This document shows positions 32,956-46,673 of a DNA stretch of 47,466 nt, in pieces (within the stretch, counting starts at the first letter, position 1; each line of letters starts with the position of its first letter). The notes beneath the pieces are model-generated. The model had not been told where the DNA came from and searched no databases. It worked only from the letters and a program-made list of their open reading frames with translations. The position numbers and the translations under genes are program-made. Source of the DNA: Actinomycetes bacterium (GTDB lineage: Bacteria > Actinomycetota > Humimicrobiia > JAHJRV01); assembly GCA_030612085.1 (NCBI GenBank), contig JAUWOM010000001.1, forward strand, positions 1-47,466, read 5' to 3'.

Positions 32956-33002
32956 GAGACATATCTATATACCCAAAGCTGATATGTCTCATATCAAGAC
33001 CT
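32956..33002 (+). repeat. 10-bp inverted repeat (gagacatatc / gatatgtctc) whose right arm begins copy 1 of a TGATRTGTCTYATRTCAAGAYCT repeat
   Basis: Stem 32956-32965 pairs with 32981-32990 across a 15-nt loop. 32981-33002 matches the cores of 33151-33187 and 33233-33269. Confidence 0.6.
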
Positions 33003-33020
33003 AACCCCTTATATACACTT

Positions 33021-33120
33021 GTCATTGCGAGGAGCATTAGCGACGTGGCAATCTCAATTATATAACTTGATGAGTTTACACTAAATGAGATTGCTTCAGG
33101 ACTTTGTCCTTCGCAATGAC
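33021..33120. repeat. Inverted pair of family A REP-like repeats (33021-33056 plus strand, 33086-33120 minus strand) with a 29-nt spacer
   Basis: The arms share gtcattgcga...gcaatctca termini in inverted orientation. The right arm has an internal hairpin aggac-aaa-gtcct. Related to 2465-2555. Confidence 0.7.
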
Positions 33121-33150
33121 ACTTGAATATATTCTTCTATATTGCAATAT

Positions 33151-33269
33151 CTGACACTGTTTTTGATGTGTCTTATATCAAGATCTGGTACTTAACTTAC
33201 CATTAATTAAAAAAATCTTATAGTGTCAAAACCTGACACTGTTTTTGATATGTCTTATGTCAAGACCTG
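33151..33269 (+). repeat. Two 37-nt direct repeats 82 nt apart (33151-33187 and 33233-33269)
   Basis: ctgacactgtttttgatgtgtcttatatcaagatctg versus ctgacactgtttttgatatgtcttatgtcaagacctg (34 of 37 identical). Confidence 0.7.
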
Positions 33270-33388
33270 AATCCTTTTTATGATCCCTTTTTATAATTAA
33301 AATTTCTTTGTTTACGTTATTAAAAGTAGAAAAAAAAGTTAACTCAAAATATTATTTTAAAAATTTTTAAAAATTTTTAAAAAATTTA

Positions 33389-42757: not shown

Positions 42758-43897
42758 ATGGAAAGAATTAAATTTTCGAAAGAATATTTCACCATATTAA
42801 TATCAACTATTCTTCTATTTACAATTGGGATAATTATGATATCCAGTTCTTCTACGGAGTATTCAAGAAGATATTTTGATGATTCATTTTATCTTTTGAA
42901 AAAGCATCTTCTTCATGCCATGGCTGGAATAGTGGTTTTAGCTTTTGTGATGAATATCCCATTTAATAAATATCGTTATCTATCATATCTTTTGATATTT
43001 GTAAATGTAATATTGTTGATATTGGTATTAATTCCGGAAATAGGTATCAGTGCAGGGGGCTCTCGAAGTTGGATAGATCTGGGAATTTTTTCCCTACAAC
43101 CCTCAGAATTTGCAAAAATAAGTTTAATTATTTTTGCTTCGGACATTTTGGTTAGGAAGAAGAAGTCCATTAATAGATTTATACACTTAGTAATTCCACT
43201 ACTTTTAATTTCAGCTATAATTACGTATTTAATTTTTTTACAACCTGATTTGGGTACAGCGGTAATAATATGGTTATCTCTTTTTGTCATCCTTTTCACT
43301 GGTAAAGTTAAATTTCGACACTTACTATTGATTTTGATAATCTGGCTTTTAATTGTTGGTGTCTATATTACAAAGGCAGAATACAGAATGGAAAGAATTA
43401 CCAGTTTTTTATCTGAATATTCAAGTGAAGATACTGATACAAATAGTGATAATTATCAATTAAAACAAGCTCTTATAGCTTTGGGATCTGGAGGTATTTT
43501 TGGTAAAGGCCTTGGTAAGAGTATACAAAAATTGGCTTATTTACCTAATCCTCATACTGATTTTATATTTGCAATAATAGGCGAAGAGTTAGGTTTAATA
43601 GGCTCTCTTTTTGTGGTTGTTTTGTATTTAGTATTTGCTATTGCTGGAATGTCTTTATGTCTTCGTACTAAAAATCAACTTGGCAAATTATTAGCAGTTG
43701 GAATTACAATATATATAGTTGGACAGGCATTAATAAATATAGGTGTTGTAAGTGGATTGCTACCTGTAACTGGTGTACCTCTTCCACTTATAAGTACTGG
43801 AGGTTCGTCATTAATTACATCTTTAGTATCAATTGGAATATTATTAAATATTGCAAAGGGAGAAAAGAGTGAGTTAGATTATGAAGATAATGATTAG
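42758..43897 (+). CDS. ftsW: SEDS-family peptidoglycan glycosyltransferase FtsW
   Basis: About 10 TM helices, with HTDFIFAIIGEELG and GLLPVTGVPLPLISTGGSS motifs. Located between murD and murG. Confidence 0.85.
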   Translation: MERIKFSKEYFTILISTILLFTIGIIMISSSSTEYSRRYFDDSFYLLKKHLLHAMAGIVVLAFVMNIPFNKYRYLSYLLIFVNVILLILVLIPEIGISAGGSRSWIDLGIFSLQPSEFAKISLIIFASDILVRKKKSINRFIHLVIPLLLISAIITYLIFLQPDLGTAVIIWLSLFVILFTGKVKFRHLLLILIIWLLIVGVYITKAEYRMERITSFLSEYSSEDTDTNSDNYQLKQALIALGSGGIFGKGLGKSIQKLAYLPNPHTDFIFAIIGEELGLIGSLFVVVLYLVFAIAGMSLCLRTKNQLGKLLAVGITIYIVGQALINIGVVSGLLPVTGVPLPLISTGGSSLITSLVSIGILLNIAKGEKSELDYEDND

Positions 43898-44990
43898 CGG
43901 TGGGGGTACGGGTGGTCATATTTATCCCGCAATAGCATTAGCAAAAAAAATTAGAAATATTAAAGATAACATTAAAATTGTATGGGTAGGTACAGAGAGG
44001 AAGTTAGAGAGAAAGTTAATTGCAAAGACAGATTTTCAATTTGAAATAATAAAATCAAGAGGATTCAGAAATAATAATCTTTTTGATAGATTTTATAGCT
44101 TATTACTTTTATCAATTGGTTTTTTTCAGTCAATCTTTTTAATATTGAAATATAAACCTGATGTCATTTTGGGGATGGGTGGATATGCTTGTGCTCCAAC
44201 AGTTCTTGCCGGATCAATTTTAAGGAAAAAGACTGCTTTATTTGAGCCTAATGTAATAATGGGTAGAGCAAATAGATTTTTAAAAAAATGGGTTGATATG
44301 ATTTTTGTCAGTCACAAAAAAACATTAGAAGAGATACCTGATAAAAAGTATAATTTTGTTGGAAATATAGTTAGAGAGGATTTATATAATATTCCCTCAA
44401 AAGAATGGGCTCGAGAATATTTTGGTTTAGATCCAAATAAAAAAACCGTTCTAATTTCTGGTGGAAGTCAAGGGTCACTTGCAATAAATAGATTTATGTT
44501 GGATGTTATCTTATATCTTGACAAAATAAAAGACATTCAATTTTTACACATCACCGGGATAAAAAATTATGAAGGGTTTAAAAAAAGGTTTTTGAGAACT
44601 TTTAAGAATGAAGAGGTTAAAAATTATAAATTTTTACCATATGTTCATGATATGCATTTTGCTTACGCAGCATCAGATTTAGTTATTTGTCGGGCGGGAG
44701 CAAATACCATATCCGAGATCATCTGTCTGGGTATTTCTTCTATATTAATACCATTTCCATATGCAATTGATGATCATCAAATAATAAATGCAAAAATTTT
44801 AAAAGATATAGATGCAGCAATAGTTATACCAGAAAATAAATTAAGTGCAACAGATTTATCAGACATTATTTATACGCTAATCAAGGATAAAAAAAGATTG
44901 TGTGAAATGGGAGATCTTGCAAAAACATTACATCAACCAAAGGCAGTTGAGAAAATGTCAAGAGGTTTAATCAAATTAGCAGAAAAATAA
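43881..44990 (+). CDS. murG: Undecaprenyldiphospho-muramoylpentapeptide beta-N-acetylglucosaminyltransferase
   Basis: GGTGGHIYPA G-loop, GGSQGS, and the ICRAGANTISE segment. Overlaps ftsW by 17 nt. Confidence 0.9.
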   Translation: MKIMISGGGTGGHIYPAIALAKKIRNIKDNIKIVWVGTERKLERKLIAKTDFQFEIIKSRGFRNNNLFDRFYSLLLLSIGFFQSIFLILKYKPDVILGMGGYACAPTVLAGSILRKKTALFEPNVIMGRANRFLKKWVDMIFVSHKKTLEEIPDKKYNFVGNIVREDLYNIPSKEWAREYFGLDPNKKTVLISGGSQGSLAINRFMLDVILYLDKIKDIQFLHITGIKNYEGFKKRFLRTFKNEEVKNYKFLPYVHDMHFAYAASDLVICRAGANTISEIICLGISSILIPFPYAIDDHQIINAKILKDIDAAIVIPENKLSATDLSDIIYTLIKDKKRLCEMGDLAKTLHQPKAVEKMSRGLIKLAEK

Positions 44991-45240
44991 AATAAATTAA
45001 GTAATCTTTGAAAGCTTTGGGTATAGTTTCTCGACTAAATGTCTTCGAAACCATACCACAAAGCTCTAATAAAAAATAAATTTAAAAAATAAATTAAATA
45101 ATCTTTAGAAGCTTTGGGCATAGTTTCTTGACTAAAATGTCTTCGAAACCATGCCACAAAGCTCTAATAAAAAATAAATATCTCATTAAAAAAAATAAAT
45201 TAAATAAGCTTTGAAAACTTTGGGCATAATCTCTTGACTG
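44991..45240 (+). repeat. Tandem repeat: two full units (44991-45087, 45088-45193) plus a truncated third (45194-45240). Each full unit carries a 17-bp imperfect hairpin.
   Basis: Hairpins gctttgggtatagtttc...gaaaccataccacaaagc (45014-45064) and gctttgggcatagtttc...gaaaccatgccacaaagc (45111-45162). The units differ by about 6 substitutions and 1 indel. The third unit keeps only the left arm. Confidence 0.85.
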
Positions 45241-45245
45241 TTTAT

Positions 45246-45281
45246 CCTCTCCCCTGGTGGGAGAGGGAAAGGGAGAGGGGG
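45246..45281 (+). repeat. Family B GC-rich REP-like hairpin with a second G-block, in the murC leader
   Basis: cctctccc (45246-45253) pairs with gggagagg (45259-45266) across the loop ctggt. A second gggagaggggg lies at 45271-45281. Same architecture as 6969-7002. Confidence 0.7.
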
Positions 45282-45302
45282 AAGATAAGAATCAATAATA
45301 GA

Positions 45303-46673
45303 TTGAGAAATAGTGAAAAATTTAAAAAAGTACACTTTGTTGGAATTGGTGGTGCAGGATTGAGTGGAATGGCAAGAGTTCTTTATGAAATGGGTTATGA
45401 GGTGTCAGGTTCAGATATAAAGAAATCTCATAATACAGAGAGGTTAAAGATATTTGGTATAGATGTTAAAATTGGTCATTTGAGTAAGAATGTGATTGGT
45501 AAAGATATCCTGGTAATATCAACTGCAATTCCAGAAAATAATTGCGAAGTAAAGGCAGCAAATGAGTTAAAAATTGATATATGGAGTAGAGCTAAAATGC
45601 TGGAATGGATATTATCACATGGGAAAGCTATTGCTATTTCTGGAACACATGGTAAAACTACAACAACATCCATGATAGCTCTTCTGTTGGAATGGGAAAA
45701 TTTTAAACCTACAATTCTCGTTGGTGGTGAATTGAATGATATTGGAAGTAATGCAAAATTTGGTGAAGGTGAATATTTTGTTGTTGAAGCTGATGAAAGT
45801 GATGGAACATTTATTCAAATCACACCTGAGATTGCAGTTGTTACAAATGTTGAAGATGACCACTTAGATTATTATAAAAGCAAGAAAGAGATAGAGAAAG
45901 CTTTTAATAAGTTTATTAACGGAGTTACCCCCACTGGATTAGCAGTAATTAATGGTGATGATCCATGTTTAATAAATATGATGAATAAAATTAATAGCAG
46001 ATATATTACATATGGATTGGATGAAAGAAATGATGTAAGAGCTAAAGATATTAAAATAGATGAGCTAAAAAGTGAATTTTTAGTTCAATTAAGAGACGAA
46101 CAATTCCGAGTTCAGTTAAAAATTCCTGGTGAACATAATATTTATAATGCATTAGCTACAATTTCAGTTGGTAAATATTTAGGTATTTCTTCAGATAGAA
46201 TCTCCTTTACACTCAGTCAATTTGTCGGAGCACAGAGAAGATTTGATGTGTTGGGAAACCCTCAAGGTGTAACAATAGTAGATGACTATGCGCATCATCC
46301 AACTGAGATTTCAGCTACCTTGAAAGCAGCTAATGCAAAAAAACATAATAGGATAATAAGCGTTTTTCAGCCTCATAGATACACGCGTACTGATTTACTG
46401 TATGAAAAGTTTGGCAACTGCTTTGGATATGCTGATTTGTGTTTAATTACGGAAATTTTTCCAGCTGGTGAGAATCCTATACCCGGAGTTACTTCAAAAT
46501 TAATTGTGAAATCAATACTAAAGAAAAATAATAGAAAACAGGTTGTCTATTTACCACAAAAAAAGGATTTAACTTATTATCTTCTTAAAAATGTCGAATC
46601 CAATGATGTTGTAGTAGTAATGGGTGCTGGTGATATAAATACAATAGCATATGATTTATTAGAAAAGTTATGA
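45303..46673 (+). CDS. murC: UDP-N-acetylmuramate--L-alanine ligase
   Basis: HFVGIGGAGLSGMA N-terminal Rossmann and P-loop GTHGKTTTTSM. I place the start at the in-frame TTG 45303 (MRNSEKFKKVHFVGIGG) because the track extension from 45234 translates the repeat element. The exact start is uncertain. Confidence 0.88.
   Translation: MRNSEKFKKVHFVGIGGAGLSGMARVLYEMGYEVSGSDIKKSHNTERLKIFGIDVKIGHLSKNVIGKDILVISTAIPENNCEVKAANELKIDIWSRAKMLEWILSHGKAIAISGTHGKTTTTSMIALLLEWENFKPTILVGGELNDIGSNAKFGEGEYFVVEADESDGTFIQITPEIAVVTNVEDDHLDYYKSKKEIEKAFNKFINGVTPTGLAVINGDDPCLINMMNKINSRYITYGLDERNDVRAKDIKIDELKSEFLVQLRDEQFRVQLKIPGEHNIYNALATISVGKYLGISSDRISFTLSQFVGAQRRFDVLGNPQGVTIVDDYAHHPTEISATLKAANAKKHNRIISVFQPHRYTRTDLLYEKFGNCFGYADLCLITEIFPAGENPIPGVTSKLIVKSILKKNNRKQVVYLPQKKDLTYYLLKNVESNDVVVVMGAGDINTIAYDLLEKL

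Follow-up and report, generated by a model that had tools for sequence, protein, structure and literature searches.

A genus-specific, hairpin-forming interspersed repeat probably accounts for the tandem array between murG and murC in a Candidatus Humimicrobiia genome

The window, the whole stretch of 47,466 nucleotides that was analysed, belongs to a Ca. Humimicrobiia MAG (hereafter, G000; 1.04 Mb in 117 contigs, 30.4% GC, 85% complete) from a reduced (about 1.0–1.6 Mb), 30% GC, uncultured lineage of Actinomycetota. In its dcw cluster, murG and murC are separated by a tandem array, detected by TRF at 44989–45239 (2.5 copies, 86% matches, score 361). The hairpin repeat of this spacer is here named family A (Table 1). 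A previous inspection of the DNA letters (hereafter, the sequence-only reading) had described a spacer of roughly 310 nt with two 97-nt units and a truncated third. The spacer is 312 nt long if murC starts at TTG 45303, and equivalent bases of units 1 and 2 are indeed offset by 97 nt. The third unit is not simply truncated, but is joined in its loop to a second repeat, family B, and matches only positions 3–48 of the family-A model (nhmmer). The oversized murG-murC spacer is accounted for by these repeats.

The murC start is probably TTG 45303, as this codon is conserved in a congener (G003) that has no repeat at the site. The start of the listed murC ORF (TTG 45234) falls within repeat DNA and is separated from TTG 45303 by positions 45234–45302; the start annotation is corrected here, the called N-terminus being repeat DNA. 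No plus-strand ORF of at least 40 aa was found within the tandem units (44991–45233); their period of 97 nt is not divisible by three, and TAA occurs in two frames of the 5' flank (TAAATTAAATAA). Four congeneric genomes (G001–G004, of which G001 is the most distant) were used for comparison; the C-terminal 99 aa of murG are 94–97% identical in three of them and 71% in the fourth.

Table 1 Genes and repeats at the murG-murC spacer and upstream of mraZ in the window.
Feature	Position	Strand	Description	Source
murG	43881..44990	+	369 aa ORF; stop codon 44988-44990 immediately 5' of the array	ORF list
Family-A unit 1	44991..45087	+	A-rich 5' flank, hairpin 45014-45066, A-rich tail; locus-specific variant with T45023-A45056	
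Family-A unit 2	45088..45184	+	near family consensus; hairpin 45105-45167 including outer helix, core 45111-45163; C45120-G45153	
Family-A unit 3	45185..45240	+	5' flank and left arm only; stops within the loop, past TTGACTG	
Family-B GC-rich palindromic repeat (TTTATCCTCTCCCCTGGTGGGAGAGGGAAAGGGAGAGGGGGAA)	45241..45283	+	fused to unit 3 in its loop; unit 3 has no right arm	
murC	45303..46673	+	inferred start TTG 45303	ORF list and frame reading
Minor-subfamily family-A fragment	32968..33010	-	upstream motif ggtcttgatatgagacatatc and left-arm stump AGCTTTGGGTATA	comparison with full copies, e.g. G000:C1:9552, with the same upstream motif

Each full unit folds into a hairpin of 17 core pairs with one bulged A and one A·C mismatch, in which 45014–45031 pairs with 45048–45066 (unit 1) and 45111–45128 with 45145–45163 (unit 2). 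The bulge and the mismatch had been recognised by hand pairing, whose limits were 1–2 nt off and which counted one pair fewer. The fold of unit 2 reaches -28.3 kcal/mol (z = -8.1) and that of unit 1 -22.7 kcal/mol (z = -5.6), and none of 200 dinucleotide shuffles was as good in either case. The arms form a palindrome of ~22 bp, and the opposite strand folds better than the sense strand (-32.8 vs -28.3 kcal/mol). The replacement of a T-A pair in unit 1 by a C-G pair in unit 2, on which the sequence-only reading had built its case for a selected fold, is real, with three of the four coordinates off by one (corrected in Table 1).

Neither strand of 44600–45600 contains a terminator-like site and there is no T-run after the stems, confirming that these are not classical terminators; in this respect family A differs from intrinsic terminators, and its tails are A-rich on the sense strand. 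A terminator acting in the antisense orientation was also rejected, as the consensus scan was negative on both strands and only 3–4 U are found in the first 9 nt past the antisense stem. Promoter-like sites were likewise absent from both strands of 44600–45600, where shuffled sequences average 5.1. Scanning with Rfam 15 returned nothing at the gathering threshold and all matches were far below it. Over the hairpins, the best match reached 20.5 bits against a gathering score of 80 (E = 2.8); that for the scanned region as a whole (E = 0.09) overlapped unit 3 and the family-B repeat.

The hairpin is not confined to this spacer. BLAST and iterated nhmmer searches revealed about 55 family-A copies in the 1.04-Mb G000 assembly (58 nhmmer hits on dozens of contigs), with the core consensus AGATTTGGGCATAGTTTCTTGACTAAAATGTCTTCGAAACCATGCCACAAATCT, and unit 2 of the array is the best nhmmer match in this genome. 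A typical unit of ~80–120 nt comprises an A-rich flank, an imperfect hairpin of 52–63 nt and an A-rich tail, and contains no ORF. According to a crude ORF call, family A is almost exclusively intergenic, with the same unit in about 50 unrelated spacers; the copies begin 0–25 nt past stop codons, inside operons. Two contigs of G000 (C40:1-131 and C31:1-131) start alike, with an identical EF-Tu C-terminus and then a family-A copy that is almost the same in both, and their downstream sequence differs by two bases only; these are either two tuf loci or an assembly duplication at the repeat.

Family A was detected in all four congeners and was not found in 36 genomes belonging to other families of this class. 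An exact 25-nt right-arm pattern, sought in 185,579 species genomes (one each), was matched in only three MAGs, labelled Candidatus Humimicrobiia or 'Actinomycetes bacterium'. The pattern had no match in viral contigs, and carriage of family A by phages was discarded on this basis. In a search of 8.4 million full-text papers and preprints, those listed for this class included, by their titles and the start of their abstracts, no work on repeats in this lineage.

The number of copies between murG and murC varies from zero to three among genomes whose flanking genes are 97–99% identical. G003 has no copy in a spacer of ~38 nt (...gaaaaataaAAAATAAATTtaggggtagattgag...), G002 has one copy corresponding to unit 1, G004 has two (unit 1 and half unit 3), and G000 has all three units. 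In the most distant congener, whose murG and murC share 78% nucleotide identity with those of G000, the spacer is unrelated and has no copy. The spacers of G002 and G003 differ by a 118-nt segment that contains the single copy and is flanked by a direct repeat (AAAATAAATT). The T-A variant of unit 1 is identical at the same site in G002 and G004. Unit 2 is missing from this spacer in all four congeners. By a hand comparison of the 5' halves, unit 2 is roughly 86–90% identical to units 1 and 3. It is 95% identical to a copy on another contig (G000:C38:4682) and is no nearer to units 1 and 3 than to copies elsewhere, and thus looks like a separate arrival of a consensus-type copy rather than a local duplication. 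In a local tree of murG and murC the empty G003 is sister to G004 within the filled clade, a placement that would require either that the copies were cleanly lost, that an empty allele was brought in by recombination, or that the tree is misled by very few differences.

To determine the extent of this variation across the genome, we examined the most complete congener, G003 (1.57 Mb, 18 contigs), as a whole. It has 23 family-A hits, against 58 in G000, and at least 18 other loci are filled in G000 and empty in the G003 ortholog, with flanks about 90–99% identical. In the distant congener, 13 copies were mapped by both flanks, and 11 of them lie in spacers without a copy in G000, indicating that the positions are not conserved. 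Turnover between genomes that are about 95–98% identical is fast enough that strains could be told apart by their arrays, as is done with MIRU arrays.

The borders of the filled and empty pairs are not uniform. Perfect direct repeats of 10, 8 and 8 nt were found at three junctions (AAAATAAATT at murG-murC, and AAAAATAT and AAAATATT at one other site each), and repeats of 0–2 nt at the nine others. The inserted segments are 93 to 123 nt long for single units, and their flanks are AT-rich and fast-evolving. The direct repeats could stem from a target-site duplication as well as from a deletion between microhomologies. A uniform target-site duplication was not supported, with perfect 8–10-nt repeats at three of the twelve pairs. 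As the junctions are non-uniform, classical transposition is not demonstrated and some of the 'empty' sites could be deletions; our claim is limited to dispersal and turnover, without a defined transposition chemistry.

To evaluate conservation of the stem, we aligned 59 distinct copies, taken from G000 and G003 and from loci in the other congeners, and counted their pairs. Paired cells made up 88.2% (83.6 ± 0.5% in shuffles) and 81 cells were changed on both sides (35.8 ± 4.2 in shuffles). The covariation score was 0.165 against 0.085 in shuffles, none of 500 shuffles reached it, and sliding the partners by 1–3 columns reduced it to 0.058 or less; these counts are of sequences rather than events, and inherited subfamily structure supplies much of the signal. 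Within the core stems, double-changed cells (n = 61) outnumbered unpaired ones (n = 47). The covarying columns were 9–59 (A-U 29, C-G 22), 20–47 (G-C 43, C-G 13, U-A 2) and 16–51 (C-G 42, U-A 15), the last being the pair singled out in the sequence-only reading, with rarer double changes in the apical stem and elsewhere. The hairpin is clearly maintained across family-A copies. At columns 16–51, T-A is the norm in a minor subfamily of family A, and the contrast between units 1 and 2 would be that of an old, locus-specific copy with a consensus copy.

The accompanying suggestion that the fold is selected rather than the primary sequence was borne out only as regards covariation. Unpaired apical bases are as conserved (94%) as paired bases (92%), and core-stem mismatches comprise 12 G·T and 17 A·C, i.e., there is no preference for G·U on the sense strand. 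The fixed A·C mismatch, which equals a G·U pair on the opposite strand, is present in 41 of the 59 copies. Conservation of the bulge, the mismatch and the loop is what might be expected of a hairpin recognised by a protein. The family-A core is nearly identical between genomes whose genes differ by 22%, and such a core at unconserved positions would fit a repeat constrained by its spreading machinery rather than a set of locus-specific regulators.

Three roles had been put forward from the DNA alone, i.e., a miniature mobile palindromic element, an intra-operon RNA device and a small RNA gene, and it is the first that is supported, by the dispersed copies and the filled and empty sites. We consider it probable (about 80%) that the array represents three insertions of family A, a genus-specific, non-autonomous, hairpin-forming interspersed repeat of the kind that includes REP/BIME, MITE and MIRU. 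Family A is accordingly new, but the type of selfish or semi-selfish repeat that it represents is known, and it is not a dedicated cell-division regulator. Its copies would be read through within the dcw operon transcript, as nothing promoter-like or terminator-like is present. The hairpin and the conserved bulge, mismatch and loop in it may be kept since the spread of copies depends on recognition of the hairpin by a trans-acting protein, which would explain the conservation of both stem and loop across species whose genes are so diverged. Unit 1, present in three species, would be old. Unit 3 may have come with the nested family-B element or picked it up later; the right arm of unit 3 would then have disappeared, apparently when the sequence between GGGG runs was deleted. 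The consensus-like unit 2 would be a later arrival. Any effect on murG or murC expression would be a side effect, given that 3'-to-5' exonucleases can be stalled by stable RNA hairpins, those of REP among them.

Alternatively, the hairpins could be a dedicated cis-acting RNA element of the dcw cluster, i.e., intercistronic stabiliser or processing hairpins selected to set the murG:murC expression ratio. Their high stability, their sense orientation in a presumably co-transcribed spacer and the stem covariation would all suit such a role, and REP hairpins are described as stabilising upstream mRNA (Stern et al. 1988, as cited in PMC3184786). However, two of the congeners (G003 and G001) have no copy and two others have one (G002) and two (G004), and the tolerance of zero to three copies among close genomes argues against an indispensable role in dcw expression. 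The recurrence of the same unit in about 50 unrelated spacers, its unconserved positions in the distant congener, the lack of a sense-strand wobble preference and the better fold of the opposite strand also count against this alternative, which we regard as very unlikely; a false lead, that of a dcw-specific riboregulator, is thereby removed. A small RNA gene in its own right, or several such genes in tandem, would be in line with the compact and stable structure. It is hard to reconcile with the lack of any promoter-like site (against a shuffle mean of 5.1) or terminator-like site in 44600–45600, the lack of an Rfam match above threshold, and copies that start so close behind stop codons within operons, and we consider it exceedingly improbable.

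The interspersed-repeat reading leaves one feature to be accounted for, as a purely selfish model does not predict an orientation bias. Of the 58 hits, 52 agree with all determinable flanking genes, four oppose both neighbours and two are mixed; ~93% of copies are co-oriented with their flanking genes (roughly 13:1), with genes taken from a crude longest-ORF caller and copies that are not all independent. Co-directional genes flank 82% of spacers. Only a single antisense copy is intact; two nested repeats split another, and the others are degenerate. Possible causes of the bias include selection against antisense copies, a sense-specific role and transcription-coupled insertion. An asymmetry of target motifs was rejected as the cause, as candidate A-rich motifs occur at about the same frequency on either strand of the spacers. 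GC skew in this lineage tracks the coding strand and therefore cannot separate replication from transcription. When the local gene direction was compared with the majority direction (±30 kb, G003 coordinates), the two disagreed at 2–3 loci, where the element follows the local gene and never the region against it; a replication-coupled orientation (lagging-strand model) was disfavoured by this test, for which only these 2–3 loci are informative. In four contigs of G003 (C16, C7, C10 and C2, each taken whole), long stretches have 90–100% of their genes on one strand, with a GC skew of about ±0.2 that tracks the coding strand, and in C16 the gene direction flips at about 180 kb, resembling a terminus-type convergence.

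A genome-wide function or mode of spread that depends on orientation would take up this bias directly, with family A either a sense-strand module (a site at gene ends for an RNA- or ssDNA-binding protein) or the product of transcription-coupled insertion. The excess of co-oriented hits, the behaviour at the 2–3 conflicting loci, the strand symmetry of target-like motifs, the single intact antisense copy and the strong conservation of loop bases are all in its favour. We nevertheless judge it distinctly unlikely, as the informative loci are few, positions turn over rapidly, close relatives manage without copies, and no partner protein was found. It is unlikely, too, that the bias goes beyond selfish spread in the form of a genus-wide domesticated gene-end module, strand-specific protein recognition or transcription-coupled hairpin insertion; the gene-end module would be marked by the conserved loop, bulge and mismatch, and by a fold that is better on the template-strand complement. 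Of all the features of family A, the orientation bias alone might merit experimental work.

Family A as an interspersed repeat shares features with several known repeat systems. Like the REP/BIME elements of Enterobacteria and Pseudomonas, it consists of short imperfect palindromes in tens to hundreds of extragenic copies, which in family A are presumably transcribed with operons. REP sequences are single or clustered and are targets for the nested insertion of other elements (PMC1525189); family A too is found single or clustered and is a target for nested insertion. REP elements are also able to act as mRNA 3' protectors, a trait that by analogy family A may share. In contrast to REP, the family-A consensus (AGATTTGGGCATAG...CCATGCCACAAATCT) has no GTAG-type head, is AT-rich rather than GC-rich and longer (52–63 nt), and shows a strong sense bias. 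Its clusters are direct tandems instead of the inverted doublets of REP/REPIN, and no RAYT gene flanked by the repeat was found, unlike in REPIN-RAYT systems.

The closest resemblance in layout is to the MIRU elements, in units of 40–100 bp with about 40–50 intercistronic copies whose tandem number varies between strains (Supply et al. 1997, as summarised in PMC3184786). Both systems belong to the phylum Actinomycetota and have tandem units in operon spacers, on polycistronic mRNA that is predicted in the case of family A, copy numbers that vary between relatives, and empty and filled sites between species. The likeness is one of layout, and a sequence relationship is not expected. MIRUs contain short ORFs extending over the stop and start codons of the adjoining genes, whereas family A has no such ORFs and a 97-nt period that is not a multiple of 3; MIRUs also differ in having tetranucleotide direct repeats. 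Supply and colleagues are said to have found MIRUs co-oriented with their flanking genes, as most family-A copies are.

With MITEs (Correia/NEMIS, RUP, ERIC/IRU), family A shares its non-autonomous nature, a length below 200 bp, inverted-repeat halves that can fold into one long hairpin, an intergenic and presumably co-transcribed location, and presence/absence polymorphism. It differs from them in insert lengths and flanks that change from site to site and in having no parent insertion sequence with matching ends in G000 or G003, and its junctions give no support for a uniform target-site duplication. The Rickettsia palindromic elements (RPEs) are, like family A, palindromic repeats (100–150 nt) spread in a small AT-rich genome, but are often in frame within protein-coding genes, whereas family A is essentially always intergenic. 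Integron attC sites, considered for their extrahelical bases and co-orientation, were rejected on account of the housekeeping neighbours, the tandem units without cassettes and the lack of an R-box consensus.

We searched for a gene that could mobilise family A. A Y1 transposase (PF01797) was detected in all five genomes, and its intact copy is the tnpA of an ordinary 1.7-kb tnpA-tnpB IS200/IS605 insertion sequence, whose flanks have no family-A copy and whose end hairpins are unrelated to family A. A RAYT or IS200/IS605 element was thus rejected as a demonstrated mobiliser, as the Y1 gene sits in a standard insertion sequence with ends unlike family A. No autonomous parent was found either, in that no left-arm–ORF–right-arm structure, in which family-A arms would bracket a gene, was detected in G000 (85% complete) or G003. 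The IS200/IS605-type insertion sequence (132-aa Y1 TnpA and TnpB) is located at G000:C88:1-1100 and G003:C7:123700-125420. It is single-copy in G003 and found at several contig ends of G000 (C88, C87, C21 and C115), suggesting more than one copy there, and a decayed second tnpA-tnpB pair lies at G000:C106:10826-12500.

Family B was found in 17 copies in G000, 12 of which are in or at family-A loops, in the orientation of the host and after TTGACT(A/G). Three copies, including the one at 45241–45283, consist of a family-A left arm and B without a right arm. At the murG-murC site of G004, the B element abuts ...GGGGG|tagattgag, and the flank in G002 and G003 reads aGGGGtagattgag, which suggests that the right arm of unit 3 may have been lost via a deletion between G-runs. 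The element is a GC-rich palindrome (CCTCTCCCCTGGTGGGAGAGG then GAAAGGGAGAGGGGG) in a 30% GC genome, and is almost always situated in a family-A hairpin loop or beside another palindromic repeat, in the same orientation as its host. Besides 45241–45283 of the window, its sites include G000:C40:15927, C40:16895, C63:12704, C94:3663, C92:11337, C92:11939, C84, C76 and C66. Some loops contain two such elements, and inside one family-A copy (C66:8764) family B is polymorphic between G000 and G003.

Repeats of at least three families are piled up 5' of mraZ. A 13-nt core reported there in reverse orientation was verified as the reverse complement of agctttgggtata at 32968–32980, and it is the left-arm stump of the minor family-A subfamily (Table 1). 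Family C (tgtcattgcgagg...cgaagcaatctca(tt)aaaaa) is present at 33020–33056 (+) and, inverted, at 33088–33122. It is also found immediately 5' of many family-A copies (e.g., G000:C76:27095-27140, C63, C37 and C74). A composite of C and A (143 nt) at G000:C76:27143 is nearly identical at C63:6692, is bounded by the direct repeat AAAAATAT and has no counterpart in the G003 ortholog. A further repeat, (a)cctgacactgtttttgatatgtcttatgtcaagacctg, is located at 33150–33190, 33225–33270 and 32981–33010 (-), and a part of it (ggtcttgacatgagacatatc) sits 5' of minor-subfamily family-A copies elsewhere. The genome contains at least four families of small palindromic repeats in a layered community, with one nesting in the loop of another. 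An AT-rich 'F' motif (ATATTAAATTCTAATTAAA) was rejected as a terminus of the element, as its 179 hits at 4 mismatches, compared with 182 in the reversed sequence, amount to noise. A handful of near-perfect copies of the motif (G000:C30:10478-10515, C54:19105, C58:6221, C92:5956 and 6056) are often ~20 nt 3' of, or directly 5' of, a family-A hairpin, and 10–45 nt before the next gene start.
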